64,000 nt of DNA, from NCBI RefSeq assembly GCF_056712565.1, contig NZ_CM160072.1, one strand, 5' to 3'. A model generated the notes under the pieces. That model was not told the DNA's origin and ran no database searches. It saw only the letters and a program-made list of their open reading frames with translations. How positions within the stretch are numbered: position 1 is the stretch's first letter; the number at the start of each line of letters is the position of its first letter. A program made the translations under genes and the position numbers. This document shows, one piece after another, positions 8,565 through 29,412 of the stretch.

Positions 8565-8571
8565 TTACGAT

Positions 8572-11463: not shown

Positions 11464-11473
11464 AGATATCCTT

Positions 11474-12190
11474 TTAATTAGGTTCAAAAATTTTAAATTC
11501 ATTCCACGGCAATTTTTTCCAGTTACTGGATGGATCTTTCAACCATGCAGTGACTTCCTTTAAATCACGGTTCGCAGTGGCGACGGGGGTATCGTATATC
11601 ATTAACCATTTTTGTCGGGCGCGAACATAAGCACTGGCATAATCTTCCCATGAAGCGAAACAATCTTGTGCTCTTTGAGCATTCAGTAATAACACTATCC
11701 AGGCCTGGTTTTCATCGCACCAGCCTAAACCGGCGATGCAACGAGTTAAAAAAGCAGTGCGCATACAGTCAAACGCCAGCCCATCCAGAACCTGGCCTTG
11801 TGCTGCCAGTTGTTCGTAAAAATCATGTGGAGAATTACCAAGCCCTGTAGCCCAGCGCTGTAATATAACGCCAATTTGTTGACGGAAATCTTCGTTGCTT
11901 TGGTAAGTTTCTGTTCCTAGCTCTTGTTTAACCTGTAGTGCAAGTTGTTGACGCTTATCATCAGTCAACTTTAAATCTAACGTGAAGCCATTTACTGACA
12001 GTCCATTACGACGAGCAACTATATCACCAATTGCTAATGCCCACTTACGTCTCTTTGTTGCTCGTCTTTTGTCCTTGATTAGATCCTTTTCTTTTTCTTT
12101 AGCAATAAAAGCATCGATTTGTGGTTTGTTTTTTTTGTATCTATAGATAAAAATAAATATTGCGACCAGGAGAACAATGATAAGACTCAT
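11474..12190 (-). CDS. Single-pass membrane-anchored hypothetical protein, possibly DUF1266-like (island gene 2)
   Basis: 238 aa; N-terminal TM helix LIIVLLVAIFIFIY then basic stretch; start ATG overlaps the upstream stop by 1 nt (TAATG). Confidence 0.65.
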   Translation of the reverse strand: MSLIIVLLVAIFIFIYRYKKNKPQIDAFIAKEKEKDLIKDKRRATKRRKWALAIGDIVARRNGLSVNGFTLDLKLTDDKRQQLALQVKQELGTETYQSNEDFRQQIGVILQRWATGLGNSPHDFYEQLAAQGQVLDGLAFDCMRTAFLTRCIAGLGWCDENQAWIVLLLNAQRAQDCFASWEDYASAYVRARQKWLMIYDTPVATANRDLKEVTAWLKDPSSNWKKLPWNEFKIFEPN

Positions 12191-13404: not shown

Positions 13405-13891
13405 AACATCCGCCCGTGTTTATTATATCACTCAAAGCAATAATTGTTGACTATAGATTTTTTATCTAAATCAGCATGGTTGCAGGTACATACTCAAGTA
13501 AGCCACTCAAGAAAATAACGTAAACTCAATAGTGGCAGCGTCACAAACTTTGGAAATTATGTCTTATATTTGCAGTTTATTTTAGTGAATAATTGAGATA
13601 AATGACATTATTTTACATCCTCAATAATTCAGGCTGTAAGAGGACGGCAAATACATTCATAATTATCAGGGGATGAACATTCAGGAAAGTAGTCAGTATC
13701 GTCAACTTTTTCTTTTATCACTACATGAAGATTTCGTGTAGATACTCCCATCTCTGCCACTTCTCCCCTCACATTTACACTGGAGCTAAACCCGCCGATT
13801 GCGCTACAATGCCCGCCCTTAAAGTGGGGGCACTCCCCTAACCGCTTCATCAGGTGAAGCGGCTCTGACCTGTCATCAGAACGAGAGAATT

Positions 13892-15253
13892 ATGTTTAAA
13901 CCGGAACTCCTTTCCCCGGCGGGAACGCTGAAAAATATGCGTTACGCTTTCGCTTATGGCGCAGATGCTGTTTATGCGGGCCAGCCGCGTTACTCCCTGC
14001 GTGTACGCAACAACGAATTCAACCACGAAAATCTTCAGCTCGGCATCAATGAAGCCCACGCGCTGGGGAAAAAGTTTTATGTCGTGGTCAACATTGCACC
14101 GCACAACGCCAAGCTGAAAACCTTTATCCGTGACCTGAAACCGGTGGTGGAAATGGGGCCGGATGCGCTGATTATGTCCGATCCAGGGCTGATTATGCTG
14201 GTGCGTGAACACTTCCCGGAAATGCCAATCCACCTCTCGGTACAGGCTAACGCCGTAAACTGGGCGACGGTGAAATTCTGGCAGCAAATGGGTCTGACCC
14301 GCGTGATCCTCTCTCGCGAACTGTCACTGGAAGAGATTGAAGAGATCCGCAATCAGGTGCCGGATATGGAGATCGAAATCTTCGTTCACGGCGCGCTGTG
14401 CATGGCCTACTCCGGTCGCTGCCTGCTCTCTGGCTATATCAACAAGCGCGACCCGAACCAGGGCACCTGCACCAACGCCTGCCGCTGGGAGTACAATGTC
14501 CAGGAAGGGAAAGAAGATGACGTCGGCAACATCGTACACAAGTACGAGCCGATTCCGGTGCAAAATGTTGAGCCGACGCTGGGTATCGGCGCGCCAACCG
14601 ACAAAGTGTTTATGATCGAAGAAGCCCAGCGTCCGGGCGAGTATATGACCGCGTTTGAAGATGAGCACGGCACTTACATCATGAACTCGAAAGATCTGCG
14701 CGCCATCGCCCATGTTGAACGCCTGACCAAAATGGGCGTGCATTCGCTGAAAATCGAAGGCCGTACCAAATCTTTCTACTATTGCGCACGCACCGCGCAG
14801 GTTTACCGTAAAGCTATCGATGACGCCGCTGCGGGCAAACCGTTCGATACCAGCCTGCTGGAAACGCTGGAAGGTCTGGCGCATCGTGGCTATACCGAAG
14901 GTTTCCTGCGTCGTCATACCCACGACGATTATCAGAACTACGAATACGGTTATTCGGTTTCTGACCGCCAGCAGTTTGTTGGTGAGTTTACCGGTGAGCG
15001 CAAGGGGGAGCTCGCGGCGGTAGCGGTGAAAAATAAATTCTCCGTTGGCGACAGCCTTGAGCTGATGACGCCGCAAGGCAACATTAACTTTACCCTTGAG
15101 CATATGGAAAACGCCAAAGGTGAAGCGATGCCGGTCGCACCAGGCGATGGTTATACTGTGTGGCTCCCGGTGCCGCAGGATCTTGAGCTAAATTACGCGC
15201 TGCTGATGCGTAATTTCTCCGGGGAAACCACGCGTAACCCCCACGGTAAGTGA
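13892..15253 (+). CDS. yegQ: Peptidase U32-family protein YegQ
   Basis: 453 aa starting MFKPELLSPAGTLKNMRYAFAYGADAVYAG; conserved position next to cyaR. Confidence 0.9.
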   Translation: MFKPELLSPAGTLKNMRYAFAYGADAVYAGQPRYSLRVRNNEFNHENLQLGINEAHALGKKFYVVVNIAPHNAKLKTFIRDLKPVVEMGPDALIMSDPGLIMLVREHFPEMPIHLSVQANAVNWATVKFWQQMGLTRVILSRELSLEEIEEIRNQVPDMEIEIFVHGALCMAYSGRCLLSGYINKRDPNQGTCTNACRWEYNVQEGKEDDVGNIVHKYEPIPVQNVEPTLGIGAPTDKVFMIEEAQRPGEYMTAFEDEHGTYIMNSKDLRAIAHVERLTKMGVHSLKIEGRTKSFYYCARTAQVYRKAIDDAAAGKPFDTSLLETLEGLAHRGYTEGFLRRHTHDDYQNYEYGYSVSDRQQFVGEFTGERKGELAAVAVKNKFSVGDSLELMTPQGNINFTLEHMENAKGEAMPVAPGDGYTVWLPVPQDLELNYALLMRNFSGETTRNPHGK

Positions 15254-15337
15254 TTAATTTCGATTATTTTTCCCGGATGGAAAATTCTTAGAAACCGATC
15301 ACATACAGCTGCATTTATTAAGGTTATCATCCGTTTC

Positions 15338-15424
15338 GCTGAAAAACATAACCCATAAAATGCTAGCTGTACCAGGAACCACCTCCTTAGCCTGTGTAAT
15401 CTCCCTTACGCAGGCTTATTTTTT
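15338..15424 (+). ncRNA. cyaR: Hfq-dependent small RNA CyaR (RyeE); 3' terminator overlaps the prophage att core
   Basis: Sequence GCTGAAAAACATAACCCATAAAATGCTAGCTGTACCAGGAACCACCTCCTTAGCC followed by terminator hairpin and T-run, matching the CyaR sequence as I recall it. Confidence 0.8.
15398..15424. repeat. Prophage left attachment core (27 bp, AATCTCCCTTACGCAGGCTTATTTTTT)
   Basis: Near-identical copy (2 mismatches) of the 27-bp core at 49972..49998; embedded in the cyaR terminator. Confidence 0.8.
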
Positions 15425-15525
15425 ACGCGTAACACAATGAAATAAAAGGATTTATTTCTGGTCACGTCCACACATTGACCACATCGACAAAAAAGCCCCT
15501 CGACTGAGGGGCTTCCTGTTTGTAA

Positions 15526-15744
15526 TTACATCCACATAATTTGCTGCCCTGACGGCAACGGGTGCGGTCTTACGGCGTGGACTTCTCCCGGCTTCACGAT
15601 GTATCGCTGTACCGACTCATAAGTGATGAATGTGGCGCTGCAATTCACGTTCTGACACTGGTGATAACGCTCTTTTGTCGTGTCAGTGATATAGCGGCTT
15701 GTACGCGCATGTGCGGCATGCTGGCATAAAGGACAATGAAACAT
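15526..15744 (-). CDS. ogr: Late-gene transcription activator Ogr (zinc finger)
   Basis: 72-aa product MFHCPLCQHAAHARTSRYITDTT... with C-x2-C...C-x4-C; ORF-track start 15807 is upstream of the real ATG. Confidence 0.9.
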   Translation of the reverse strand: MFHCPLCQHAAHARTSRYITDTTKERYHQCQNVNCSATFITYESVQRYIVKPGEVHAVRPHPLPSGQQIMWM

Positions 15745-15825
15745 CGCGAGCACCTCTTCCGGTTTTGTTGATGGTGCTATTTTAGTTAATTTATCCTTAT
15801 AAAACAAATAGATAAAATAAAAACA

Positions 15826-16989
15826 TCACTCATCATCTTCTGTTTCGTACTCCACATCAGAAAGCCTGACCTCAAGCTCCAAGGACGTCGTGAAGCCGCT
15901 ATTATTCAGAAAATGTGTCACCTTAGTGATTGTCCAGTCCTGCTCGTCTATGACGCGCTTAAAGCCTGACACTTTAACCGGTGTTTCCGTGTAAATATCT
16001 GCCCGACCGGTAGCCAGGCTGATGGAGAACTCCGCAACGCCCCGTTGCAGCTTATCCCACTTCGCCTGAGCGGCGCGCATGGCCTGCGCTTTCGTGGCAT
16101 ATACCGCGGTCAGGGCAAAAACATTGTCAGCCTCACCTGCCATGTATTCACCTTCGCGCGCTTCCGGTACTTTTGGCGCTTTCTTCTGCGTGACTGGTTT
16201 CGCTTTCGGGTGCTCCAGTGCGCGCAGGTGTTTCTCTTTCTTTTTGCGTTTCAGTTTTACCTTCTGCTTTTGTGGCTTCGGGTCTTTGGTGTGTAACCAC
16301 TTTGCCGTTACGCCGGTATAGGCTCCACGGTCAGCAATCGCAAAATGATGGCGGTCGCCGTCGCTGCGGGTGATGGTAATCTGCGGGATTTTTTTACCGC
16401 TGGCCGTCACCCCCTGCCCCGCCTTGAGAAACAACAGTTTTCCCATTTTTACCGACACCTCACCGCCGTTGCGTTCAGCAAGGCGGGTCAGGAATTTTGC
16501 ATCAGACTCCTGCGACTGGTCGATGTGCGGGATTTTAATTCCGGCCAGTGACGGAGCGACACTGGCTTCCAGCCTGTTACGGGAGGCTATCGCTTCAACA
16601 ATCGCACCGAGCGTGGTGTCATGCCAGGAGCCTTCACGGCGGGAATTGAGCGTCCCGCGAAAATCTGCACTCCGGGCGCGGATGGTGACCACATCCGGTG
16701 CGCCCCGGTGTTCAACCTCATCAACGGTAAATTTCCCTTTGCATACCAGGGCAAAACCTTTCCAGCCGATATACACCGTCAGGACAGCGCCACGAACCGG
16801 CAGCCCGACCTGCCCGTCGGCATCGTTCAGTTCAATATCAAGCTGGTCAGCCTCAAAGCCCCGGTTATCCGTCAGGGTCATGCTCATCAGACGGTCGCTG
16901 ATATTGCCGGTAATATCCCTGTTGTCGAGCATCAGCATGTAATCCGGCGTCAGCGTACTGCCTGCATCAAATGTCAGTGCATCCAGCAT
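15826..16989 (-). CDS. D: Tail protein D
   Basis: 387 aa, P2 gpD size and position. Confidence 0.85.
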   Translation of the reverse strand: MLDALTFDAGSTLTPDYMLMLDNRDITGNISDRLMSMTLTDNRGFEADQLDIELNDADGQVGLPVRGAVLTVYIGWKGFALVCKGKFTVDEVEHRGAPDVVTIRARSADFRGTLNSRREGSWHDTTLGAIVEAIASRNRLEASVAPSLAGIKIPHIDQSQESDAKFLTRLAERNGGEVSVKMGKLLFLKAGQGVTASGKKIPQITITRSDGDRHHFAIADRGAYTGVTAKWLHTKDPKPQKQKVKLKRKKKEKHLRALEHPKAKPVTQKKAPKVPEAREGEYMAGEADNVFALTAVYATKAQAMRAAQAKWDKLQRGVAEFSISLATGRADIYTETPVKVSGFKRVIDEQDWTITKVTHFLNNSGFTTSLELEVRLSDVEYETEDDE

Positions 16990-17468
16990 TATCCCGCCCC
17001 CGTCATATCCGTGAATTTAGTCGCCATACTGCCAGCCTTACCGATGAGCGATTCTGCCTGTTTACCGATATCGCCATAAAGCGCGGCCAGTGATTCATCA
17101 ACGCGGGTGAGCGACAGCGTAAAATCAATTTTCCGGGGTGTGCCGTCTGCAAAGAAAATACTCCCTGTTTCACTCACCCTGCTGATGACATACATGCCGT
17201 AAATCATGCCGGTGCCATCCAGCAACGGCCACGCCCGGCCTTCCTCAGCCATCAGCCTGAGCGTGGTCATCGTCAGCTTGCCGCCGGTCAGTTCGGGATA
17301 AAGCACACCGGCAAGCGTGATATTTTCCTCGCCAACACCGAGAAACTGAAAGGCATCCCGTTTGCCGATACGGGAATTTGACGCCCAGCGATAATCTGAT
17401 TCACGCTGCATGGTCTGGTGTGGCAGCGTCTGGCGCATAAAAACAAACATACCTAACGCGAGCATCAT
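16989..17468 (-). CDS. U: Tail protein U
   Basis: 159 aa, P2 gpU size and position. Confidence 0.85.
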   Translation of the reverse strand: MMLALGMFVFMRQTLPHQTMQRESDYRWASNSRIGKRDAFQFLGVGEENITLAGVLYPELTGGKLTMTTLRLMAEEGRAWPLLDGTGMIYGMYVISRVSETGSIFFADGTPRKIDFTLSLTRVDESLAALYGDIGKQAESLIGKAGSMATKFTDMTGAG

Positions 17469-17482
17469 TTTTCGTCACCTCC

Positions 17483-19930
17483 TTAACCGTCATGCATCAT
17501 GCTGGCACGGGCGCGCGCACGTTTATCCCGCTCGTATTTTTCGAGCGCATCCTGTAACTGGCGGTCAAGCTGTGTCCCCGGCGCAGTACCACCCGTCAGG
17601 CTGATGTGATATTCGTTTTTACTCTGGTCCACATAAGAGCGGCCAGCCGGTGCCGTGACCGGCTGATAAGCCTGATAGCCTGCATAAGAGCTGGTCGCCG
17701 GAATATAACCACCGGTGCCATACGTGGCGGCATGAGTTCTGGCGGCGGTCTGGTCAAGTGTGTCTGACTCTTTGTTGATAACACCGAGTTTTTCCAGTAC
17801 CCAGTCAATACCGCTGCGCAGTTTGTTGAACGCATTAAGCGGCAGCATCAGCGCGTCAGCCAGTGCCTGCCCGAACATGACGCCCGTGTCACGGCAACGG
17901 TTCAGGGTGTCCCGGGTGGCTTTAACCGGAGCAATCAGGTTTGTAAACCACTGCCACGCGGCCTGTAACTTTTCGCCCAGCCAGTCAAACACCGGCTTAA
18001 GTGGCGTGAACAGCTCCCCCACCGGCGCAAATGCCGCTTTCAGCCCTTCAACCACACCGCCAAAGAATGCGCTGACAGGCTCCCAGTATTTACGGATAAG
18101 CAACGCCCCGGCGACAATGGCAGCCACCACGGCCACAACCGGCCAGCTAATCGCCCCGATGGCCGTCATAACAGCACTGCCAACCGTCGTGAAGATTGCC
18201 CCCATTGCGCCTGCTGCCGCGATAATAGCATTGATGCCGGTGATAACCGGCCAGGCTACGAGGCCAATGGCACCAATGATGCCAGTCAGCGCCAGTGCAC
18301 CACCGGCAATTAGGCCAATGGTTAACGCCAGTGATTTGTTTTTCTGGATCCAGCCGTCGAGTTTTAACACATACTTTGTGGCCGTCTGCGTGAGCTTACG
18401 CAGTGCGCCTTCCTGCTGGTCAAACAGGTCAGTCCCCACCGCCTCATAAGCGGACTGAAACTCCTTAAAGTCACCGCCGAGGTTGTCCTGCATGATATTT
18501 ACCAGTTCTGCGGTCTTTCCGTCTGAGGCTTTAAACGCAGCGGTCAGTTTGTCCAGCTTTCCGGTTGAGGCGGCAGTCATCAGCACGGCGGCGGCTGAAC
18601 TGGCCTCCTCCCCGAAAATGGTTTTCATGTATTCAGCCTGCTGGGCAGTACCGAGCCGGTTTTTCTCAAAACTGGCCTGCATTTCTTTCAGAATGGTAAA
18701 TACTGGTCGGGTGTTTCCCTTACTGTCTGAGGTTTTCACACCAAGCTCTTTGAGTGCATCCCATGCTTTTCCCGTCGGTGCCTGCAGGCGGCTTAACACG
18801 GCACGGCTTCCCGTTCCCGCCATTGAACCGGTAATTTTTGCATCATGCAGCGCCCCGACCATTGCGGCTGTTTCTTCAATGCTGACACCGGCATTTTTTG
18901 CCACAGGTGCGGCATAGGTCAGCGCATCGCTCATACCGTCAAAATCGGCGGCGGTTTTGTTCATCGTCATGGAGAGAACATCCCCGATATGAGCGACCTT
19001 ATCGTTTGAAAGCTGAAAGGCGGATTTCATCCCCATCAGCAGGGCGGCGTTTTCTTCCATCGTGCGGCGGTTCGCCAGCGCCATATTCAGCGTGACCGGC
19101 GTTGCCGCCTGAATGGCATCAACATCCCCACCGGCTTTCGCAATGATAATCTGCGCACCGGCAGCATCATCCGCCGAGGCGGCTGTGTTGTCGCCGAGCT
19201 GGCGCGCCTGTTTGCGTAGCGCGGCCATTTCGGCAGAATCTTTTGCCACACCGAGCACGGCCTGTAATTCTGAGTTTTTCTGCGCAAACTCATAACCGGG
19301 CATCAGCAGCTTAACACCGGCCATCGTTCCCGCCGCCGCAATCCCCACACCGGCAGCGCCCACTGAGGCCATATTTCCGGCCAGTTCCTTTCCGGCCTGA
19401 TAACGCTGTTTGACTGCGTTAAGTTTTGCCTGTTGCGCACTGACACGCGCCAGCGCGTCACGCTGCCGGTTAAGCTGGGCGGTGGTTTCACTGATACGGT
19501 TTTTCAGTCCCTGCTCATCATGTGCAAGATTGCGGGTATTAATTCCCACAGCGGCCAGTTCCCGCTGCTGGCGTTTAACGGAATCTGTCAGGCGGTTATA
19601 TTTCGCCTGTAAGTCCTCCGCCGCACGCTTTGCGGATTCCAGCACTTTCGCCTGAGCACGGGTCGGGCGTTCGGTGTTTTTAAACTGTGTGGCAAGGGCT
19701 TCGGCCTGCTGCCGTGCCTTTTCAAGTGCATGACCAGTCACGGCGAGCTGTGCACTGGTCTTGCGGAATCCCTCAATACGGGATGCGTGACCGTTCAGCT
19801 CGCGCAGTGATTTTTGTGTTTCCCGGATATCCCCCGACAGCAACTTACTCGCTGTGCGGATGGATTTAAACGGGCGGGACGCCTGGTCAACAGCCCTGAG
19901 CAATACCTGTAATTTTACATTGTTACTCAT
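17483..19930 (-). CDS. T: Tail tape-measure protein T
   Basis: 815 aa, Ala/Gly-rich with coiled-coil N-terminus; P2 gpT size. Confidence 0.88.
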   Translation of the reverse strand: MSNNVKLQVLLRAVDQASRPFKSIRTASKLLSGDIRETQKSLRELNGHASRIEGFRKTSAQLAVTGHALEKARQQAEALATQFKNTERPTRAQAKVLESAKRAAEDLQAKYNRLTDSVKRQQRELAAVGINTRNLAHDEQGLKNRISETTAQLNRQRDALARVSAQQAKLNAVKQRYQAGKELAGNMASVGAAGVGIAAAGTMAGVKLLMPGYEFAQKNSELQAVLGVAKDSAEMAALRKQARQLGDNTAASADDAAGAQIIIAKAGGDVDAIQAATPVTLNMALANRRTMEENAALLMGMKSAFQLSNDKVAHIGDVLSMTMNKTAADFDGMSDALTYAAPVAKNAGVSIEETAAMVGALHDAKITGSMAGTGSRAVLSRLQAPTGKAWDALKELGVKTSDSKGNTRPVFTILKEMQASFEKNRLGTAQQAEYMKTIFGEEASSAAAVLMTAASTGKLDKLTAAFKASDGKTAELVNIMQDNLGGDFKEFQSAYEAVGTDLFDQQEGALRKLTQTATKYVLKLDGWIQKNKSLALTIGLIAGGALALTGIIGAIGLVAWPVITGINAIIAAAGAMGAIFTTVGSAVMTAIGAISWPVVAVVAAIVAGALLIRKYWEPVSAFFGGVVEGLKAAFAPVGELFTPLKPVFDWLGEKLQAAWQWFTNLIAPVKATRDTLNRCRDTGVMFGQALADALMLPLNAFNKLRSGIDWVLEKLGVINKESDTLDQTAARTHAATYGTGGYIPATSSYAGYQAYQPVTAPAGRSYVDQSKNEYHISLTGGTAPGTQLDRQLQDALEKYERDKRARARASMMHDG

Positions 19931-20350
19931 TCGTGTTTCCGCTTCGCCTGAGCGCCTTTTCGCGCCATGTGATGAGTTCGGTCAGGCTCATGGGATACAG
20001 TTCTGATGGCGGCCAGTGAAATATCACTGCCACATCCGCCATCAGGTCATCGACCGACAGATTTTTCGGAAGCGTCACTGCACCGAGTTCGGCGACAAAA
20101 AACCGACCACCTTACCGGCCAGCGCCACAAGGTCAGGCAGTTCCAGCGCGGCGACTTCCTGCTCGGTCAGCATCGGTGCCGTCATGCGCGGCAGCACCTT
20201 AATCAGTGCATCGACTTCGGAGTTCGCGACCGCAGCCAGACTGACACCGCGCAGCGTCCCGGCATTAGGTTTCATCAGCGTGACCTGTTCGATAACCTGC
20301 TCACCACGCTTGACCGGATTGTCCAGGGTAATCACATTTTCTTTGTTCAT
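19924..20350 (-). CDS. E': Tail assembly chaperone E+E' (-1 programmed frameshift product)
   Basis: -1 frame after TTTTTTG (20096..20102) stays open to a TAA at 19924..19926 that overlaps the T start codon (ATGAGTAA). Confidence 0.75.
20075..20350 (-). CDS. E: Tail assembly chaperone E
   Basis: 91 aa between T and FII; ends just after the slippery heptamer. Confidence 0.85.
   Translation of the reverse strand: MNKENVITLDNPVKRGEQVIEQVTLMKPNAGTLRGVSLAAVANSEVDALIKVLPRMTAPMLTEQEVAALELPDLVALAGKVVGFLSPNSVQ
20096..20102 (-). other. Slippery heptamer T_TTT_TTG for the E/E' -1 frameshift
   Basis: Complement of caaaaaa at 20096..20102, in frame as G-F-L within the gpE C-terminus. Confidence 0.75.
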
Positions 20351-20406
20351 GGTTTTCTCACTTCTGAATCGGGGTTAACCGGTCAGCCAGGCTGACCGGA
20401 TGAAAA

Positions 20407-20925
20407 TCACAGGCCGATATTGCGGCGGTGTTGCTCCAGCCGGTCGACGCCGTTCACCTTCTCAATCATGTTGATGGTGTCGATTTCGACCAGCTCCTTA
20501 CCGTCCATCGTCAGCCGGAAATAGGTGCAGACCACGGAGATTTTCGACTCGGTGTCTTCTCCCTGTTTGCCCTCGCCGGTGTCGATTTCTTTCTGACGTC
20601 CACGCATGACCACCTCGACGGCCACCGTTTCGCCGGTATCGTCGCGCTGGTAAGAGCCTGCAAAACGAATCGGTACGGAATCCACACCGGTTGCGGCGTA
20701 AAGCTCCCAGATAACCGAATCCGGGAAGCCACCGAGCGACCACTCCATTGACAGCGCATCGTCATCAAGGCCGAGGTCTACCGGTGCGCTGCCGTTCATC
20801 CCCGCACCGCGATAGTTTTCGAGCTTACGGGTCAGTTTTGGTAGCGTGACGGACTTCGCGACGCCCTGATAGCTGTAGCCGTTCAGAAAGACGTTCATTA
20901 ACTTGAGTTTGCGCGGCATTGCCAT
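20407..20925 (-). CDS. FII: Tail tube protein FII
   Basis: 172 aa, P2 gpFII. Confidence 0.88.
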   Translation of the reverse strand: MAMPRKLKLMNVFLNGYSYQGVAKSVTLPKLTRKLENYRGAGMNGSAPVDLGLDDDALSMEWSLGGFPDSVIWELYAATGVDSVPIRFAGSYQRDDTGETVAVEVVMRGRQKEIDTGEGKQGEDTESKISVVCTYFRLTMDGKELVEIDTINMIEKVNGVDRLEQHRRNIGL

Positions 20926-22130
20926 CGGTCAGGCTCCTTATAATTGCTGTTAACCGAGGTGACCAGATTTGCCAGGTATTTATCGGTAATACGCTGGCGC
21001 AGGGTCAGGTTTTCAAGAGGAGGCACCGGTGTATAGTCGTAGTCGATATACAGTTTTCCGGCCTTGAGGGTTTCCGCATCGTTGGATTCTTCGCTGAACC
21101 AGCAGGTCGCATCCACGATATAGCCGTTTGTTTTCAGCTCACGGAATTTGGCATTGATGCCGTCAACGATGTCGCGAATCAGCGTTGCGGTGATGGGCTT
21201 GTCCACCGCCCACATGTGCGCCTCAGCCATCGTGTCAGCCAGTACCTGCGCGGTGCGGGTGTAGTTTTCAAAGAGGAACAGCGGGTCATCAGAGCAGGTA
21301 CGGTTACCCCAGAATCGGAAACCGTCGCGGCGAATCAGCGTAGTGACGCCTGACTCGTTAAGCAGGTCAGCATCGGTGCCGGACTCCTGCAAATCCCAGA
21401 ATACAGATGCGCTGATGCCGGTAACACCGTTTACCCCGACGTTGGACAGCGTTTTATGCCAGCCCTGCTCCTGGTCGATTTTAGCGCGCAGACCCAGCGC
21501 ACGGGCGGTGGCATACGCGGTAGCGGTGGTACTGGTGACCGTATCCCATGCGAGGAAATCCGGCCAGATGACCATCAGCTCACGCTGGCTGAAATTCTGG
21601 CGGTAGGCTTTCACCTCGGAAATGGTCTTACAGCCCCATGCGCTGATATATCCGAAAGCGCGCAGCTTCTGACAGACGGATGCCAGTGCAACAGCCACCT
21701 CTTTGGTATCCAGTCCCGGCACACCGAGAATACGCGGTTTAACACCGGTTACCGACTCCGCCGCCAGCAGGGCTTTTAGTCCGGTGTACTGACCGTTTTC
21801 GTCGGTGGTGCCGATGATATTGGAAACGGTCTGCGCGAGTTTCGTTTCCTCGTCATCACCGGTGCAGTCTTCCACGCGCACGACAACGGTGACCGGTTTT
21901 GACTGGTCAGCGATGGCCTGCAACGATGCCGCCAGCGTGCCTTTTTTACCGGCCTTTGCAATTGCGCTTTGCACATTGGTAATCAGCACCGGTTTATTGA
22001 GGGGGAAGGTTTCCGCATCCGCATCGCTGGCCGTGCAGACCATGCCGACAATGGCAGTGGATACGGTGGAAATGACGCGGGTGCCGTCGTTAATCTCCAG
22101 CACCTGCACGCCATGATGATAGTCACTCAT
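20898..22130 (-). CDS. FI: Contractile tail sheath protein FI
   Basis: 410 aa starting MSDYHHGVQVLEINDGTRV. Confidence 0.88.
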   Translation of the reverse strand: MSDYHHGVQVLEINDGTRVISTVSTAIVGMVCTASDADAETFPLNKPVLITNVQSAIAKAGKKGTLAASLQAIADQSKPVTVVVRVEDCTGDDEETKLAQTVSNIIGTTDENGQYTGLKALLAAESVTGVKPRILGVPGLDTKEVAVALASVCQKLRAFGYISAWGCKTISEVKAYRQNFSQRELMVIWPDFLAWDTVTSTTATAYATARALGLRAKIDQEQGWHKTLSNVGVNGVTGISASVFWDLQESGTDADLLNESGVTTLIRRDGFRFWGNRTCSDDPLFLFENYTRTAQVLADTMAEAHMWAVDKPITATLIRDIVDGINAKFRELKTNGYIVDATCWFSEESNDAETLKAGKLYIDYDYTPVPPLENLTLRQRITDKYLANLVTSVNSNYKEPDRWQCRANSS

Positions 22131-22222
22131 CCGTTTAACTCCGTGGTTAATGGGTACAACTATTTTCTGTTGTGCAGAGCATAAGACGCTATTTGACCTG
22201 GCTGGTCAGTGGATGAAACAAC

Positions 22223-22253
22223 AGATAAAGAAAAGGCGGGCAATTCGCCCGCC
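22223..22253 (-). terminator. Rho-independent terminator between cargo region and the FI operon
   Basis: 7-bp GC stem ggcgggc/gcccgcc with a T-run on the minus strand (complement of agataaagaaaa). Confidence 0.5.
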
Positions 22254-22460
22254 TGTCCTGATTTGTACTCACTCATTTTCCGCCTGACAATTTACATAGC
22301 CCAAATGCTATCAAACCTGACAGTCTGCTTTGAGCGAAAAGTGGACATTAGAGTTACAAAAGCAAGTTTAAATCATCCAAAATATTACAATGTCCTTATC
22401 TATCTGATATCGTTATGATAAAAAGCTCCTGAATATAATCGATAGTAGGTGGTTATTTCC

Positions 22461-22838
22461 ATGAAATCAATTTTAGAGGTCTTTACTCAAGGAAATACTA
22501 AAGAAAAACTGGCTGTTATCGCCGATCTCACAACCATTGCGGGAATATCGATTGCAACTATTATTGCTGGTTTGTTAACCCTAGTTGCAAAAACAGATAA
22601 ACTAGATGTTGGAAATCTGTTTGGAGTTGTCATAATATCTCTGCTCGGATTGGCTGGTGTTTGCTGTTTTGTGGCCTTATTTATTTGGGTTATAACCCAA
22701 ATGTCTAAACCATGGGGAACACCTCGGGGGGTTCAGCCCTTAGTTAAGTGTGCTATTTCCCTTATCTTTATCTGTATGTTTTTGCTGGCTGTCTTTACAT
22801 TTTATGAGTTTATTTCTTCGATGAGCATACGCTATTGA
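22461..22838 (+). CDS. Small hydrophobic membrane protein (3 predicted TM helices), prophage cargo
   Basis: ORF 22449..22838; likely start ATG 22461 (MKSILEVF) with AGGTGG RBS; AT-rich. Confidence 0.6.
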   Translation: MKSILEVFTQGNTKEKLAVIADLTTIAGISIATIIAGLLTLVAKTDKLDVGNLFGVVIISLLGLAGVCCFVALFIWVITQMSKPWGTPRGVQPLVKCAISLIFICMFLLAVFTFYEFISSMSIRY

Positions 22839-22860
22839 ATATAAAATCAGCCCCCATAAC

Positions 22861-23445
22861 TTAAAAGAGACCTTCTATATCGACTTCAATGCCCAAATAA
22901 CGGACTGTGCTTTCCAGTTTCTTATGGCCCAACAGAAGTTGGATCACCCGGAGACTCTTGGTTTTCTTGTAGATTAAGTAAGGTTTTGTTCTTCTCATGG
23001 AATGTGTGCTGTACAGCGAATCTTCGAGACCAAGCTTTTCTACCCACCCATGAAAAATTCGGTTGTATTGCCGGGTTGATATATGGTGGTTAGTTCCGAC
23101 CCGAGAGCGGAACAGGAAGCCTTTACTATGCCAGTTGCCGAGCTTTATCAATGCAGTAACCGCTTCCCTTGTCCCTTTGGTTATCTCAAATTGGACAGGG
23201 CTGCCGGTTTTCTGTTGCAACACCGTTGCTCTGCTTGAGACAGAACTGCCATATGCAGCATCTGATACTTTGAGTTTGACCAAATCACAGCCCCGTAGCT
23301 TAGTGTCCAAAGCCATGTTGAACAGAGCTAGATCGCGTGTTTTACCTTCCAACTCAAGTCTAATCCGGATCCCCCAGATATGAAATATCTGAAGTGGCCT
23401 TTTTTGACCGATGGTACGGTCTTTATTCCACGGTGACGTTTTCAT
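22861..23445 (-). CDS. Small tyrosine recombinase (phage-integrase family, FimB/FimE-sized)
   Basis: C-terminal catalytic signature HSMRRT...LLGHKKLESTVRYL (R, H-x-x-R, Y); likely start ATG 23445 with AGGAGA RBS giving 194 aa. Confidence 0.7.
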   Translation of the reverse strand: MKTSPWNKDRTIGQKRPLQIFHIWGIRIRLELEGKTRDLALFNMALDTKLRGCDLVKLKVSDAAYGSSVSSRATVLQQKTGSPVQFEITKGTREAVTALIKLGNWHSKGFLFRSRVGTNHHISTRQYNRIFHGWVEKLGLEDSLYSTHSMRRTKPYLIYKKTKSLRVIQLLLGHKKLESTVRYLGIEVDIEGLF

Positions 23446-24275
23446 ATTCAAATCTCCTGCAATGTGGGAGATTTGAGTATGGTTGTCTCTCAAGAGCGAA
23501 AATAAGTCAACTATCACTAGTTGTTGCGCATGTACGTATTCTGTCAATTAATTATTGACAATCATCAATTCTGGAATGATCAAAATCATCATATCGAATT
23601 ATAGTCTGGTTGACTGTATCTATTGTTGGTGTCATTTCTGTTATAATATCCTGATAACCTAAAGAGTTAAATACATTTACTAAGGCCTCACACCGAAGGG
23701 CCGTAGCAATTACAAAATTATAAATTGCCAGCCGTTTATTTTCTTGTTTAACTGCAAGAATGAATTCGATAGCAGTATTTTCATCACTTTGGATTGCATT
23801 ATATAGAGATACTATATTTACCATATCATCAGAGAATGTATGTATTGAATCACAAAGGGGAACGTAATGGGCATGATAGTGTGTTTCCCAGCCAATTAAT
23901 TCAAAAAGTCTTCTGGTTCCTGGATATTCAGGTGTATTTGGCCACAATCTATTAAATAGATCAGTTAGTTCTTTTCCCATGCGAATCCTTTCATTTGCTG
24001 CTGGATTAGTCATTCCTTTGGATTTTAAACACTCCAGCCACCGTTTTCCATTACTATGAACTAATTTCTTACTAGCCTTGAGTAATGCTTGTGCATTTTC
24101 GCCATCATCTATTGCTATATAAAATTGATTGGCAGCCTGTTCTATTATAACCCTAGCTAATACTTCCGATGCTGAAAAGGCTCCTATATTCAAAGAAGAG
24201 ATAGCCTGATTACTAAGTTCATTCAGTACATTAAAGTACTGTAAGACCATCAATTTTTGTTCCACACCCTTTAGG

Positions 24276-24280
24276 TTGTC
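24276..24280. repeat. IS2 target-site duplication, TTGTC (copy 1)
   Basis: 5 bp immediately flanking the IS2 terminus, identical to 25612..25616. Confidence 0.85.
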
Positions 24281-24291
24281 TGGATTTGCCC

Positions 24292-25197
24292 CTATATTTC
24301 CAGACACCTGTTATCACTTAACCCATTACTGGCTTGCTGCCGTAGATATTCCCGTGGCGAGCGATAACCCAGTGCACTATGCGGATGCCATTCGTTATAA
24401 TGCTCGAACGCCTCTGCAAGGTTCTTTGCTGCCGTTAACCCGTCTGGTTTGGGCATGACACTGATGTAGTCACGCTTTATCGTTTTCACGAAGCTCTCTG
24501 CTATGCCGTTACTCTCCGGACTCCGCACCGCCGTGCTCTTCGGTTCAAGCCCCAACATCCGGGCAAACTGCCGTGTTTCATTAGCCCGGTAGCATGAACC
24601 ATTATCCGTCAGCCACTCTACTGGAGACGCCGGAAGCTCGTTGCCGAAGCGGCGTTCCACCGCTCCCAGCATGACGTCCTGTACTGTTTCACTGTTGAAG
24701 CCGCCCGTAGTGACCGCCCAGTGCAGTGCCTCACGGTCACAGCAGTCCAGCGCGAACGTGACTCGCAGTTTTTCTCCGTTATCACAGCGGAACTCGAACC
24801 CGTCAGAGCACCATCGCTGATTACTTTCTTTCACAGCCACTCTGCCTGTATGTGCCCGTTTCGATGGCGGTACAGCAGGTTTTCGCTCAAGCAACAGCGC
24901 ATTCTGGCGCATGATCCGGTAAACACGTTTGGCATTGATCGCAGGCATACCATCAAGTTCTGCCTGTCTGCGAAGCAGCGCCCATACCCGACGATAACCA
25001 TACGTGGGCAGCTCTCCGATAACATGGTGTATACGGAGAAGCACATCCGTATCATCAGTGTGACGACTGCGGCGGCCATCCATCCAGTCATCGGTTCGTC
25101 TGAGAATGACGTGCAACTGCGCACGCGACACCCGGAGACAACGGCTGACTAAGCTTACTCCCCATCCCCGGGCAATAAGGGCGCGTGCGCTATCCAC
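24292..25197 (-). CDS. insD: IS2 transposase InsD (orfB, DDE domain)
   Basis: 301-aa ORF inside IS2. Confidence 0.9.
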
Positions 25198-25520
25198 TTT
25201 TTTGCCCGTCCATATTCAACGGCTTCTTTGAGGAGTTCATTTTCCATCGTTTTCTTGCCGAGCAGGCGCTGGAGTTCTTTAATCTGCTTCATGGCGGCAG
25301 CAAGTTCAGAGGCAGGAACAACCTGTTCTCCGGCGGCGACAGCAGTAAGACTTCCTTCCTGGTATTGCTTACGCCAGAGAAATAACTGGCTGGCTGCTAC
25401 ACCATGTTGCCGGGCAACGAGGGAGACCGTCATCCCTGGTTCAAAGCTCTGCTGAACAATTGCGATCTTTTCCTGTGTGGTACGCCGTCTGCGTTTCTCC
25501 GGTCCTAAGACATCAATCAT
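25155..25520 (-). CDS. insC: IS2 InsC (orfA, HTH)
   Basis: 121-aa product [41 protein letters not shown]...; overlaps insD in -1 frame. Confidence 0.9.
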
Positions 25521-25611
25521 CTGCTCTCCAATGACTAGTCTAAAAACTAGTATTAAGACTATCACTTAAATAAGTGATATTGGTTGTCTGGAGATTCAGG
25601 GGGCCAGTCTA

Positions 25612-25616
25612 TTGTC
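25612..25616. repeat. IS2 target-site duplication, TTGTC (copy 2)
   Basis: 5 bp immediately flanking the other IS2 terminus. Confidence 0.85.
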
Positions 25617-25768
25617 TATTTTATTTTTATGCTCCTCAAATTTTGCATGGATATATTTATTTATCGCGGCTATTTTTTTTACATCTTCGTCAAGATCAAA
25701 CGGGCAACGTCCAAACAATTCTTTTTTCATATATTTCTCCTGTTGTACAAGCTTCCATAAGTTGGCAG

Positions 25769-25794
25769 ATTATACACTGAAGATTACCTATAAA
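25769..25794 (-). promoter_or_regulatory. Candidate sigma70 promoter for the IS2-disrupted cargo gene
   Basis: Minus-strand TATAAT (25769..25774) with TTTATA upstream (25789..25794); spacing about 14 bp, so tentative. Confidence 0.35.
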
Positions 25795-26151
25795 TAGCTG
25801 TGCGGGATAGCAGATCAGTGCAAGAAGTACAACCAAGTGAACTGTGCGTATTCAGATACCTGGCCTAACGTTCGCGATAGCCGTCCCCTGCACGAAGCCA
25901 TATATTAGATGTATTAGCTCAGACCTTATCTGACAGGTTGAGTAGGTAGAATCTAATCAAAGCTGACAGTCTGGTTTGGACTGTGAGTTCAACCGATGGA
26001 TGCAACACACAGCGATCTACGGACATTACTAGCATAGCTGTGTATTAATCATCGGGAAGCAGGTCAGTCCGCTCCTAGCACAGAGCAGACTGTCAGATTA
26101 GGCTTTACTCTGTGCTATAGATACGTTAGCTCACTCCAGAGATCATACAAC

Positions 26152-26679
26152 TTATTGCGGCATTTCCGGCCATTCAGGATTTGCAGGATCCACACGGCTG
26201 ACCAGAACACTGTAGCGTTCCCATGCTTCCAGTCGGCTACGCTCCTCATCTGTTGCCATATTCAGTCTGACAGAGCGTTCCAGTGGCTGAATGATAGTTT
26301 CAGCTTCGGAAAGCAAAGCTGACTTCTGTAATTCCGCCAGTTGCAGCTGTTCGTCTGCCGTATAAATCCGCTTAATCACGGCACCATCCTTAAACATCCA
26401 TTTACCTGAGTCATCAGCACGTCGGTTGGCGGTAATATCAGGAACCTCGACAACGCTAAAACCTTCAGGGTTGAGCGTTGAAGCATCTCTGGTGATGCCG
26501 ACAATTATATTATTCTCATCGTAAACAATCTTTATCGTGTCTTCCTGAAAATTACTTACTTCCTCATACCAGTTTTTTCCCTCTTCGGACCATAACCAGA
26601 TAACATCAAAATTTTTTGTCAGTTGATATTGGGCAACAGTTTTTGGATTACCCGCAGTAATATTTTTTAAATGCTGCAT
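26152..26679 (-). CDS. G: Tail fiber assembly protein G
   Basis: 175 aa immediately downstream of tail fiber gene H. Confidence 0.85.
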
Positions 26680-26682
26680 AAA

Positions 26683-29412
26683 TTACACCTGTGCGACGTT
26701 ATACCATGTGCCATTGATGTATTTTTGTATTGGTCTGAATACTGCGGGGTCATCACCATCGACTTCACCGACAATACCAAGCCCGGTAATTACGTGCCCT
26801 GCTTTCTCATACATCACCCCTTTCTGCATGGTCTGGACAACACGTGTGCCAAGTCTGACATCTCTCACATAGCGGGAATCAAAGTTACCGTAATCCGAGG
26901 GATTAACACGCCCCGTAATATTTATGGTTTTATTACTTTGAACGCTTCCGGAGACAAAGCGCATAACATGGACGCTATTAGCATAAACATCCAGATTACC
27001 ATCACCATTTTGTTTAAAGCCCGTGTCATTATCACCCAAAACAATCGAATTACCGCCAAGAGCACTGGATGTTCCTATACCCAGAGCACCATTCAATTGA
27101 CCACCAGATAACGGCAGTGCACCGACATCTCCCGCTGTAGGTTTTCGCGTTGTGGTATAAAACTCAGACCAGTCAGCCTCGAATCCGTAACCGTCACGAG
27201 CAGAACGATAAAAAATACCACCGTTCTTATAATTAACGCGAAACTGGGCGGCGGGACAACTTCCTTCCCCGATATTAAAATGAAGAATTAACGTTGATGC
27301 CCCACCAATAGTTGCGTTATAGGCTCCGCTACTCCAGTTCCATCCAACGGCTTTATCATTCGCAACGGTGTCTCCTGTTTTTCCTGAAGCAAATGCACCA
27401 ATATTTTTCGGCGTCAGGTTAATATCTGATGTTCCATCAAACGAAACGTTATTAATTTTACGGGCTGTTTTCAGCTTTGTTGCTGTCGCCGCATTGCCGG
27501 ACAGTTCACCAGAAAGGCCAGCACTGAATGTCTGTTTCGCGCCCCATGTCTGGGCTTCGTCGATAATTGGCACACGTCTTGTCGTGATCGTGCGGCTTCC
27601 CGGATTTCCTGAAATACGCACCATAAAAAAGCGGTAGTTGGCTTTACTTACAGTGCTGCGCCATACATGCATTGAGCGTCCCGAACCAGAATCATCACTC
27701 GGACCGACTGAGATGTTTATCAGGTTGCCATCAATGACGCCCCAGTCCATACCGTCGGGAATATTGGTCATGTTATCCAGCCGAACGGTTATCAGACTGC
27801 CCGGCACAAAATCGTATGTCTGCCAGTCCAGGCTGGTGAGTTTTGCCACTGCGCCACCGATACCCAACTCTAACGGCAAAGAGTTTGAGTTATAAATCTG
27901 TCGCCACTCCCCCCACGCGTTAAATGAGCCACCAAGAAACACTCGCTCATATAAACGGTCTTTTGTAGCTGCGCTGGTTCCTGTGGTCGTGTAACGTTGC
28001 AAAACATAGACACCATCCTTGCGCCTGATGACTTCCAGAAAACCAGACTGCCCCTGGATTGGGGTGTGGGTCGCTTTGCCTGTCACACTGTAAATACCTG
28101 GAGACATCAAATCATCCAGGTCATCCTCATAGAAGGTACTACTGGTCTGATAACCAATTTGGATCCAGTCTTCCCACTGTGGATTTTCTGCATCCCATTT
28201 GGCTGTCAGGCCGCGAATATACATAGTCCCGTTACGGGTTGTATAACGCTGTGTGCGTCCATATAGCCCACCTTCGAAAATTTCCAGAATGCCCTGCGCG
28301 TCTCCTCCCTGCTCGGGGTAATGTCGTTCAAAAGAAGCTATTGCTGAACTGCTGTTTCTCCATAGACCTAAATGTTCTGCGCCACCGAGAGAGTTAAGGT
28401 CAATGGTCGTACTTAGAGCTCGCGTTACAGCCTGAACATGGCGCCATGCTCCCCATGGTCCATCATTACCATTCCATGTTCCAATGAGTTTGCGGATATA
28501 CAAATTTCCGTCACGTGTGGTATAGCGTTGCGTGCCTGCAAAATTGCCGCCAGTAAAAACCTCAAGCACACCGACAGCATTATCTTCAGGGAAGTTTTTC
28601 TCCAGTGTTGCGTTGGTGGACGTTGCTTTAGACCAGATACCTGAATAAGCCTTAACAGAACCAAACGTATTCAGATCAGCATCAACCGGCATTTCGCCAT
28701 TGTTTTTCATAAACGTCAGGCTGGTAACGCCAACATTGTCCAGAAAAGCTGATTTATCCTGGATATCTGCACCATTCTGATTTTTCGCCAGACGTGAATT
28801 TGCGTTGTCATTTGCTGCCTTGACCGCTTTTGGCGTTGCTGCCAATGACTCACTGGTGCTGTTTGTTGCACTGCTTAACTGAGTAAAACCTTTTTCTGTC
28901 AGCGTGGCGTCAGGATGGCGGCGGGACTGCTCATGCTCTGCGATTTTGTCATCGACGTAATCCTGCGTCGCCATCACTGTGCTGGCATCAATACTCAGCT
29001 CAACGGACGCCACGTTACTGACAATAATAACCATGCGGCAGGTCTGCGCACGCCCGGAGCCTTCAGCCAGTTCTGGCTTATAGCTTTCAGCCATGTTGGA
29101 TACCGCAATCAGTGTTCCGGCATCGTCATACAGACCAAGCTCACGCATCCAGAAGCCGCCCACTTCGGGCGGTACAACCAGTTCAGCCACGATATAGTTT
29201 TTATTCTTGTTATCCACGCTGACTTTATTCAGAGCGTGACGCCAGACCTCATGCACCAGTTTCGTCTGACCGGCATCCGGCACCGGCAATTTGCCATTAC
29301 CGTCACCCACGGCCATTGCAGACAGGGTTACTTTTTTCCCGCCGGGGACAGTGGCGGCTGCCAGCTTTGCGGCTCCGGCAGTAGTGATAACGGTTTTAAA
29401 TTTCGTGCTCAT
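26683..29412 (-). CDS. H: Tail fiber protein H (909 aa, enlarged distal region)
   Basis: Conserved N-terminus MSTKFKTVITTAGAAKLAAATVPGG; internal repeated modules in distal half. Confidence 0.88.
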   Translation of the reverse strand: MSTKFKTVITTAGAAKLAAATVPGGKKVTLSAMAVGDGNGKLPVPDAGQTKLVHEVWRHALNKVSVDNKNKNYIVAELVVPPEVGGFWMRELGLYDDAGTLIAVSNMAESYKPELAEGSGRAQTCRMVIIVSNVASVELSIDASTVMATQDYVDDKIAEHEQSRRHPDATLTEKGFTQLSSATNSTSESLAATPKAVKAANDNANSRLAKNQNGADIQDKSAFLDNVGVTSLTFMKNNGEMPVDADLNTFGSVKAYSGIWSKATSTNATLEKNFPEDNAVGVLEVFTGGNFAGTQRYTTRDGNLYIRKLIGTWNGNDGPWGAWRHVQAVTRALSTTIDLNSLGGAEHLGLWRNSSSAIASFERHYPEQGGDAQGILEIFEGGLYGRTQRYTTRNGTMYIRGLTAKWDAENPQWEDWIQIGYQTSSTFYEDDLDDLMSPGIYSVTGKATHTPIQGQSGFLEVIRRKDGVYVLQRYTTTGTSAATKDRLYERVFLGGSFNAWGEWRQIYNSNSLPLELGIGGAVAKLTSLDWQTYDFVPGSLITVRLDNMTNIPDGMDWGVIDGNLINISVGPSDDSGSGRSMHVWRSTVSKANYRFFMVRISGNPGSRTITTRRVPIIDEAQTWGAKQTFSAGLSGELSGNAATATKLKTARKINNVSFDGTSDINLTPKNIGAFASGKTGDTVANDKAVGWNWSSGAYNATIGGASTLILHFNIGEGSCPAAQFRVNYKNGGIFYRSARDGYGFEADWSEFYTTTRKPTAGDVGALPLSGGQLNGALGIGTSSALGGNSIVLGDNDTGFKQNGDGNLDVYANSVHVMRFVSGSVQSNKTINITGRVNPSDYGNFDSRYVRDVRLGTRVVQTMQKGVMYEKAGHVITGLGIVGEVDGDDPAVFRPIQKYINGTWYNVAQV

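Follow-up and report, generated by a model that had tools for sequence, protein, structure and literature searches.

The closest described counterpart of the region considered here is the Z/fun locus of phage P2, in which diverse foreign genes are flanked by inverted repeats. These repeats were reportedly described in 2004 by Nilsson, Karlsson and Haggard-Ljungquist (Mol Biol Evol 21:1), and site-specific recombination is said to have been proposed there. The same locus, with the same repeat sequence, is present in the DNA analyzed here, 64,000 nucleotides (nt) of contig NZ_CM160072.1 from assembly GCF_056712565.1; this whole stretch is called the window below. It contains an Escherichia coli P2-like prophage with its late genes on the minus strand, and about 4 kb lie between the tail-fibre assembly gene G and the sheath gene FI, which is the classical variable slot of P2 ('TO', Z/fun). 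As in the P2 description, a left repeat stands right after the G stop codon and a right repeat lies upstream of the FI terminator and promoter. Unlike that description, the window has a third end, and the three ends are the subject of this study.

Other known systems resemble parts of what is found in this slot. In integrons, a platform tyrosine recombinase lies beside a site that accumulates diverse promoter-less or self-contained cassettes in arrays; imperfect palindromes stand between the cassettes, and the boundary falls at a GTT triplet. The pdif modules of Acinetobacter plasmids are gene modules between inverted XerC/XerD sites. Like the cassettes treated below, they lie between inverted sites of alternating polarity, are common to unrelated replicons and mostly lack a recombinase of their own; PMC9771954 points to them. 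In engineered recombinase-mediated cassette exchange with heterospecific lox or FRT sites, inverted incompatible sites hold a cassette and permit double-reciprocal exchange. Class 1 integrons within Tn402-type ends combine two layers, in that the platform transposes (with the transposase usually supplied in trans) and the cargo turns over site-specifically. Non-autonomous, passenger-carrying transposons, too, have terminal inverted repeats, a feature matched here by inverted pairs of ends of about 90 nt.

The repeated motif and the stem-loop picked out in the initial annotation are conserved ends delimiting the exchangeable cargo slot that lies between G and FI, and the left (L) and right (R) copies are the already known inverted repeats of the P2 Z/fun region. 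From the comparisons set out below, it seems moderately probable that the cores of these ends act in the P2 slot as sites of site-specific cassette exchange. It is a more tentative proposal, which we hold possible and would stop short of calling probable, that they belong to a cassette-exchange system widespread in the Enterobacterales and other Gammaproteobacteria, in which a small tyrosine recombinase, here named rec200, would swap cassettes through two inverted, heterospecific 24-bp cores set in a transposon-like platform. With similar reserve, P2-like phages, P4-like satellites, lambdoid prophages, SXT-like elements and plasmids could be the exchange partners, and many of the cassettes look anti-phage. 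The core anatomy, the two alternating spacer types, the spread outside P2, the transposon-like outer layer and the candidate recombinase appear to go beyond the earlier description.

A search with nhmmer and a profile of 73 ends found exactly three ends in the window. These, with their cores and the parts adjoining them, are as follows:

26065..26149, minus strand: L-type end, the 'left inverted repeat' of the P2 Z/fun region (nhmmer match 26153..26065, E = 1.6e-21)
26067..26090, minus strand: L-type core, GTCTGCTC-TGTGCTAG-GAGCGGAC; cargo-specific DNA starts directly after it
26076..26117, no strand assigned: stem-loop with a perfect 10-bp stem and a 22-nt loop opening with the 11-mer
26086..26096, minus strand: inverted 11-mer; the minus strand reads CTGACAGTCTG
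25910..25981, plus strand: M end, the third end, of R type (nhmmer match 25908..25978, E = 3.9e-7, profile positions 4-74)
25982..26010, plus strand: solo terminal inverted repeat TGTGAGTTCAACCGATGGATGCAACACAC of the IS30 family (ISCfr4-like), matching DNA annotated as IS30-like ISCfr4 family transposase
26025..26066, plus strand: 42-nt semi-conserved inner extension of the M end, reading inward and always joined to ..CGGAC
22264..22346, plus strand: R-type end, the 'right inverted repeat' of the P2 Z/fun region (nhmmer match 22259..22354, E = 4e-24)
22323..22346, plus strand: R-type core, GTCTGCTT-TGAGCGAA-AAGTGGAC, inverted relative to the L core

The outer tip of the L end, TGTATGATC, starts 2 nt past the G stop codon; with its inner edge, ..GAGCGGAC, the end adjoins the cargo. 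At the other boundary the R end has its outer tip, TGTACTCAC, at 22264 beside the terminator of the phage backbone, contains the 23-nt motif and turns its inner edge toward the cargo. The M end starts with the tip TGTATTAGCTCAGA at 25910, followed by an outer CTGACAG box at 25930-36 and the 11-mer at 25963-73; the remainder of its core (AGCGATCTACGGAC) is found at 26011..26024, beyond the solo IS30-type repeat, which lies in the core spacer and thereby destroys the M core. The best matches of the M end are ends in Pectobacterium and Kosakonia genomes. Together, the L and M ends make up an empty unit of 246 bp.

The 11-mer CTGACAGTCTG is exact at 22317, 25963 and 26086, the last copy being inverted. 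Allowing at most one mismatch, 5 matches (4 of them exact) occur in the window against 0.63 expected, a count reached in no shuffle, and the degenerate 23-mer has 2 matches against 0.00 expected. The 11-mer is thus far more frequent than chance predicts. All the elements that they listed were found, with coordinates shifted by 1-3 nt: the middle copy ATCAAAGCTGACAGTCTGGTTTG is at 25956..25978 (previously 25958..25979), the far copy ATCAAACCTGACAGTCTGCTTTG, which equals the middle one at 21 of 23 positions, is at 22310..22332 (previously about 22307..22329), and the perfect 10-bp stem is formed by tagcacagag at 26076..26085 and ctctgtgcta at 26108..26117 (previously 26074..83 and 26107..16). 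The inverted 11-mer, cagactgtcag, had been placed exactly at 26086..26096. The non-coding stretch of about 400 nt described as free of open reading frames (ORFs) has trivial ones only, of 44-46 amino acids (25731..26151). A fourth exact CTGACAGTCTG, at 44648..44658, lies in G+C-rich, coding-looking DNA with flanks unlike those of the other copies, and is probably there by chance.

These motifs become intelligible as parts of a longer end. The L ends, the reverse-complemented R ends and the ends of other genera can be aligned over about 95 nt with rare gaps. An end of about 90 nt consists of the tip TGTAT(T/G/C)A.CTC, an outer CTGACA(G/A) box, an inner box with the 11-mer, and then ..GAGCGGAC(G/A)TT. 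Its inner 24 nt form an 8-8-8 palindrome, that is, (CA)GTCYGCTY, an 8-nt spacer and GAGCGGAC. The 11-mer corresponds to the palindrome's platform-side arm together with four bases that flank it; in the copy at 26086, the last 7 nt and the following 3 nt (CAGTCTGCTC) constitute the platform-side arm of the L core. L-type ends have a long stem, (G/A)GCACAGAG with CTCTGTGC(C/T), which is the annotated stem-loop and forms the outer hairpin, and R-type ends have a short stem, CAAA with TTTG, around the 11-mer, which accounts for the ATCAAA and TTTG flanks noticed before. The two types differ in their spacers across loci, TGTGCCAn in L and TGAGCGAn in R, with a constant difference at positions 3 and 6. 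All pairs in which both cores could be typed have one TGTGCC-type and one TGAGCG-type spacer, facing each other. Cargo junctions are equally regular: the variable DNA extends from just past GAGCGGAC(G/A)TT to just before (A)AC GTCCGCT, and this boundary of conservation at the core is visible in 38 cargo types.

For comparison within the same slot, 80 P2-like loci were fetched from IMG/VR via the sheath protein, and the G-FI gap was extracted from 45. Seven gaps are empty, 127-136 nt long, and hold a stop codon, a terminator and a late promoter. Both repeats are absent from these empty sites, and they therefore belong to the insert and not to the phage backbone. The other 38 gaps are distinct and occupied, range from 1.1 to 4.4 kb and carry many unrelated types of cargo between the same boundaries. 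In most of them, the left copy occupies gap position 47 or 59 (one locus has 62), and 195-200 nt, usually 196, separate the right copy from the FI start codon; some occupied loci lack one or both motif copies when at most one mismatch is allowed. No cargo in both orientations was found among the P2-like loci compared. Conservation of the motif in related elements, on which the annotators' proposal depended, is thus seen both in occupied P2-like gaps and in the ends of other genera. A search of phage records matched AJ512676-AJ512683, the 'proviral Z-region' of P2-EC phages. In the GenBank entries AJ512676-AJ512685, the region after G is labelled 'left inverted repeat' and that before FI 'right inverted repeat'; the L end is 87-92% identical to the annotated left repeat over 84-87 nt (AJ512683 and AJ512681 included), and the R-type consensus matches the annotated right repeat (AJ512683).

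The most informative case is a cassette of 1,957 nt that is 98.9% identical between a P2-like phage (L039) and an element adjoining the replication genes of a lambdoid prophage (L222-L225). At its left edge, homology starts from GTCCGCT.TGTGC.AAGAGCGGAC inside the L core, and the upstream DNA is unrelated. At its right edge, homology stops after ..GTCCACTCCTCGCTCA, at the border between spacer and outer arm of the R core. The DNA outside the cores is unrelated, and since only about 8-24 nt are identical at the junctions, ordinary homologous recombination is unlikely to have moved this cassette. The lambdoid locus L222 is an array of three cassettes in which L and R alternate strictly, [L|cargo|R][L|cargo|R]-rec200-[L|cargo|R].

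Full ends are found well outside P2. When genome contigs were scanned with a 16-mer, most of the 120 loci were chance matches in unrelated phyla, and about 20 loci of Enterobacterales carry full ends. Inverted pairs of ends, 0.5-5.8 kb apart, are present in Mixta, Enterobacter, Serratia, two Kosakonia species, Pantoea and Rheinheimera, in a plasmid-like region of Yersinia, and on plasmids of Salmonella, Klebsiella, Yersinia and Providencia. The Mixta pair is immediately preceded by an integrase gene beside smpB and has a Psu-like ORF at its opposite end; we take this locus, whose gene identities were read from translations, to be a P4-like satellite hotspot. In a scan of 5,426 complete E. coli genomes, L-type ends are present in 1,197.

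Several of these units are bordered by short direct duplications. Duplications of 7/7 nt adjoin the tips in L176 (CTTAATC), L159 (AATAATT), L086 (TTTCATG) and pair 1 of L215, and the last of these may be a duplicated tip and not a target duplication. Duplications are partial in L202 (6/7, CTTTATA/CTTTACA) and in L103 and P2 (5/7 each), and none is seen in L216 and in pair 3 of L215; the P2 site would fit an ATTTATT duplication that has decayed. From the 7-nt duplications, the whole unit seems to have been inserted once by transposition. Inside about 20 inspected units no cognate transposase was found, a collection-wide search for autonomous relatives not having been made; the transposases met among the fetched loci belong to unrelated IS30, IS1182 and IS2 insertions only. 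A side observation concerns the tips themselves. The M tip is preceded by a near-copy of itself at 25901..25918 (ATATTAGA|TGTATTAGC), and tip-like 7-mers also precede tips in L103, L215 and L216. They may be duplications of the terminal 9 nt, and such a process complicates the calling of target duplications.

The candidate enzyme is encoded in the cargo itself:

22861..23445, minus strand: rec200, a tyrosine recombinase of 194 amino acids comprising the catalytic domain only (Pfam PF00589, E = 1e-17)

The family, with members of about 200 amino acids, is highly conserved and has more than 7,900 homologs, 75-92% identical in Enterobacterales, Idiomarina, Rheinheimera and others, and relatives occur in 868 of the 5,426 complete E. 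coli genomes (16%). The window copy scores 18 bits against the integron-integrase models TIGR02249 and NF011946 (cut-offs 265 and 435) and far below the cut-offs of the NCBIfam Xer models, and a sequence search of PDB returned weak XerD matches only. Its catalytic residues appear to be retained on inspection of the translation. More than 20 distinct contexts of rec200 were examined, including lambdoid prophages, islands beside P4-type integrases and SXT-like elements. In nearly all of them a hairpin begins a few nt past the stop codon; next comes GCCAnnAGCGGAC(r)TT, and from there on the loci differ. Where the upstream side was examined, most contexts have an R-type core some 50 nt ahead of the start codon, again with divergence beyond. 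Four subfamilies have four unrelated stem sequences in the downstream hairpin at the same position. Many loci keep only the last 20-40 codons of rec200 and the site, and the P2 phage L049 has a hybrid L end that includes the last rec200 codons and the rec200 site. Thus the gene stands between two cassettes, in a platform position, as expected of the platform's own recombinase; this is a matter of association. What is associated with the family of the adjacent tyrosine recombinase is the inner part of the ends (TGTGCCAnGAGCGGAC) and not the 11-mer as such. Separately, a conserved, perfect 11-bp inverted repeat, CTCAAATCTCC-N9-GGAGATTTGAG, at 23442..23482 overlaps the rec200 ribosome-binding site and is also present in L217-L231. 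This repeat might regulate the recombinase, either as an operator or as a hairpin acting on translation.

On the proposed mechanism, the 24-bp palindromes would be the core sites of a tyrosine recombinase, and the cassette between an L and an R core would be swapped as a unit with any replicon that bears an L/R pair, L recombining with L and R with R. Because the two cores are inverted and unlike at two spacer positions, the cassette would be neither excised nor inverted. The likely enzyme would be rec200, a copy of which sits in this cargo and which could act in trans on elements without the gene. The platform may originally have been inserted by a transposition-like event generating 7-bp target duplications. 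The slot, read from G, consists of an empty unit (the L end and the IS30-scarred M end), the DUF5677 gene, rec200, and a membrane-protein cassette closed by the R end. This order could have arisen by a single exchange in which the phage L and R cores recombined with a longer segment from a donor; a small deletion and the insertion of IS2 would have come later.

Such a system would differ from each of its known counterparts. Unlike integron integrases of about 320 amino acids, rec200 proteins have 194-200 and no IntI-specific insertion; the site lies downstream of the gene, whereas the integron site is upstream of intI and divergent from it; each cassette has two inverted non-identical cores instead of one attC in a fixed orientation; and there is no sign here of a single-stranded folded substrate. 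In contrast to pdif, the core has an 8-8-8 layout and not the 11-6-11 layout of the 28-bp dif site, a dedicated small recombinase would take the place of host XerCD, and the hosts are phages, satellites and plasmids of Enterobacterales instead of Acinetobacter plasmids. By inspection, the core GTCYGCTY-N8-GAGCGGAC shows no resemblance to E. coli dif. Engineered cassette exchange is man-made, and in the present case the incompatibility of the spacers is deduced from their constant two-position difference. The comparison with Tn402-type elements is limited by the ends of about 90 nt, by duplications of 7 bp instead of 5 bp, and by the lack of a cognate transposase among the units inspected.

Several observations weigh against the proposed exchange system or against rec200 as its enzyme. 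Apart from copies of the window's own type, none of the 80 IMG/VR P2-like loci has rec200, so that action on most P2 cargo regions would require the enzyme to be supplied in trans. In the window itself, the native last codons of rec200 and its downstream L-type site have been replaced, and homology ends at 22879. The site next to rec200 has a hairpin arm on its left and no clear inverted GAGCGGAC there, which makes the 8-8-8 definition of the core provisional. The CTGACAG 11-mer is missing from the L and R sites of the lambdoid element and thus is not essential to every platform. The 7-bp duplications suggest a transposase, and none was found in the inspected units, so that the CTGACAG boxes could instead be transposase-binding sites. 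The stems do not help either: covariation is not significant in either candidate stem across 30 L-type ends, the outcome of the covariance analysis that the annotators had suggested. The 2004 account may, with its own model, cover part of the present interpretation.

Among other explanations, the ends may be regarded as terminal inverted repeats of a non-autonomous DDE-type transposon, with CTGACAG boxes that bind transposase and with passenger copies that reinsert at a favoured spot. This agrees with ends of about 90 nt that start with 5'-TGT, contain three related boxes and differ between left and right, with the 7-bp duplications in L176, L159 and L086, the 6/7 match in L202 and the compatible ATTTATT of P2, and with empty sites that lack the whole unit. 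However, no transposase was seen inside about 20 units, transposition cannot account for identical outer ends to which different cargo is joined at one and the same inner nucleotide, and the cassette common to the lambdoid element loses homology inside the cores and not at the tips. As an account of the cargo we consider it unlikely; most likely, transposition explains the arrival of the platform and not the exchange of cargo. It is more doubtful still that the ends are simply conserved linkers, between which ordinary or phage homologous recombination swaps cargo without a dedicated recombinase. Ends of about 90 nt that are 80-95% identical would suffice for recombination of the Red or RecET type, P2 lacks rec200, and homologous recombination has been proposed for other hotspots of P2 and P4 (Rousset et al., 2022; PMC9122126). 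Nevertheless, the flanks of the cassette shared by P2-like and lambdoid elements are unrelated, with about 8-24 nt in common per junction, a single junction nucleotide is met again and again in dozens of unrelated contexts, among them the position right beside a recombinase gene, and the strict alternation of L and R cores is not expected from homology alone.

The structured-RNA or regulatory role that the annotators also considered fares worse than their recombinase-site reading, which the comparative evidence favours. The stem-loop and motif might act in RNA or transcription as a 3' stabiliser or terminator of the late V-G operon, or as an insulator against cargo transcription, since a lysogen must express cargo without read-in to late genes. 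The stem-loop starts about 32 nt past the G stop codon, the late strand of 26055..26125 folds at -26.2 kcal/mol (z = -3.3 against shuffles), and the stem is paired in 93% across the 30 L-type ends. No U-tract follows the 26076-26117 stem, however, the next sequence being AGGAGCGG, and the sole call of a terminator scan was the backbone terminator at 22234..22254, which empty-site phages keep although they lack the ends. A scan of 21500..27000 on both strands against Rfam 15 gave no match at E <= 1. With stems that are conserved and covariation that is not significant, there is no case for an RNA structure. The same ends also flank cargo of plasmids and other prophages in either orientation to the neighbouring genes, and we regard this role as very improbable. 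Hardly more credible, and if anything slightly less so, is that the direct repeats at 25956 and 22310 are attL/attR-like and that the recombinase moves the DUF5677-recombinase-membrane module as one element. Their match at 21 of 23 positions, their direct orientation and the encoded tyrosine recombinase suit this idea. On the other side, the module of the E2348/69 lambdoid prophage (26067 to 22879) extends about 90 nt past the middle copy and stops before the membrane ORF, that prophage has a single motif copy, the middle core is interrupted by the IS30-type repeat, and no excised or empty variants were found among E. coli genomes carrying the module. Of the notion that copies of the motif bracket the module, the part that stands concerns the inverted pair 26086/22317 and not the direct pair 25963/22317.

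A few other candidates were tried and dropped. An invertible switch was rejected because the L-M interval has the same orientation in 35/35 E. coli genomes at an identity of at least 99%; the 42-nt segment beside the L end is inverted relative to other P2 cargo types because it belongs to the M end. A late-promoter element (Ogr site) was rejected for the right copy, since the motif is upstream of the backbone terminator and outside the region common to empty-site phages. A Hin/Gin-type crossover site and an ERIC repeat were considered as well (ATCAAA..TTTGAT; GAGCTTACAT), and presumably neither applies, for spacing and overall sequence do not fit. A text search of the literature for the site sequences returned unrelated primer coincidences only.

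Experimental work on the recombination pathway has explicitly been called for (Rousset et al., 2022; PMC9122126). This question becomes directly testable here because the analysis names probable components: a 24-bp core with two kinds of spacer, exact junctions, a candidate enzyme, and one cassette in two unrelated phages. If the cassette-exchange model is true, nature would have its own version of recombinase-mediated cassette exchange, and integrons and pdif modules would be joined by a third kind of cassette system. New cargo genes could then be sought in any replicon with the L and R cores as markers, and a compact orthogonal tool for cassette exchange might be made. Should the model fail, what is left is the P2 inverted repeats already described and one additional, inactivated copy.

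The genes and other features around the ends are these:

26683..29412, minus strand: tail fibre gene H
26152..26679, minus strand: tail-fibre assembly gene G
23552..25730, minus strand: DUF5677 gene split by IS2 (C-terminal part 23552..24280, N-terminal part 25612..25730)
24281..25611: IS2 within the DUF5677 gene, 1,331 bp, with the target duplication TTGTC at 24276-80 and 25612-16
22461..22838, plus strand: small membrane-protein ORF, a separate piece of cargo between the lost recombinase site and the R end
22234..22254, minus strand: intrinsic terminator of the phage backbone, outside the insert and also present in empty-site relatives
20898..22130, minus strand: sheath gene FI
20407..20925, minus strand: tube gene FII

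The IS2 genes, which we take to be insC and insD, were named from their ORF translations by recognition alone. Without IS2, the cargo has a 100% identical copy in the E. coli type strain ATCC 11775 and in many extraintestinal pathogenic and avian pathogenic E. coli (ExPEC/APEC) strains; the uninterrupted DUF5677 protein, of 280 amino acids, is found in ATCC 11775 and many other strains. In strain 98208, the same prophage cargo has an insertion of ISEc12 and not of IS2. When the three cargo proteins were compared with PADLOC and NCBIfam, no defence family was matched, and the only similarity was a generic one to tyrosine recombinases.

The DUF5677-recombinase block from 26067 to 22879 is also present in a lambdoid prophage of E. 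coli E2348/69, at 86-91% identity. The M end accompanies it there and contributes the sole copy of the motif, and the membrane-protein ORF is not part of the shared module; the latter gene is also found near the L end of another P2-like phage, L035. In the E2348/69 locus (L204, 1271924-1282081), the recombinase of the DUF5677 module is a pseudogene. A pair of genes for an AAA ATPase and an HNH endonuclease follows the module, right behind the recombinase-adjacent site, and is likely another defence cassette. In the window, rec200 ends with ..GIEVDIEGLF*, whereas its relatives end with ..GIEVDDALEISESIEV*, and the junction with the membrane-ORF segment falls at 22861..22879.

The palindromic core seems to be an insertion hotspot for insertion sequence (IS) elements. 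Intact IS30-like elements occupy the identical end position in L138 (5397-6600) and L173 (2315-3600), from Pectobacterium and Raoultella, and an IS30-type terminal repeat abuts the same spacer nucleotide in L159 and L105, including Kosakonia (..TTTGAGC|TGTGAGTTCAA). Since these insertions fall at an identical position in the spacer, the palindrome would be a target for that IS family. Elements of the IS1182 family adjoin cores in L100 and L090.

The 42-nt extension of the M end follows the pattern ..rTTACTrACATCA...TGTTAAT..ATAGrGAGCAGGTCA and is carried by many other ends of either type; relatives of about 88% identity exist in well over 100 E. coli genomes and plasmids. It could be an inward promoter or an accessory site. 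Two further observations concern the sheath gene and the DNA before it. The FI ORF encodes 410 amino acids and overlaps the start of FII. Residues 1-396 are matched in most close relatives and residues 1-408 in a few more distant phages, which may reflect a C-terminal extension or a shifted stop codon. In one P2-like locus, L007, a gene resembling a serine DNA invertase (with the C-terminal motif ..GRIGGRRPKLT) stands just before FI in place of the usual ends, and this suggests an invertible tail-fibre segment in that lineage.

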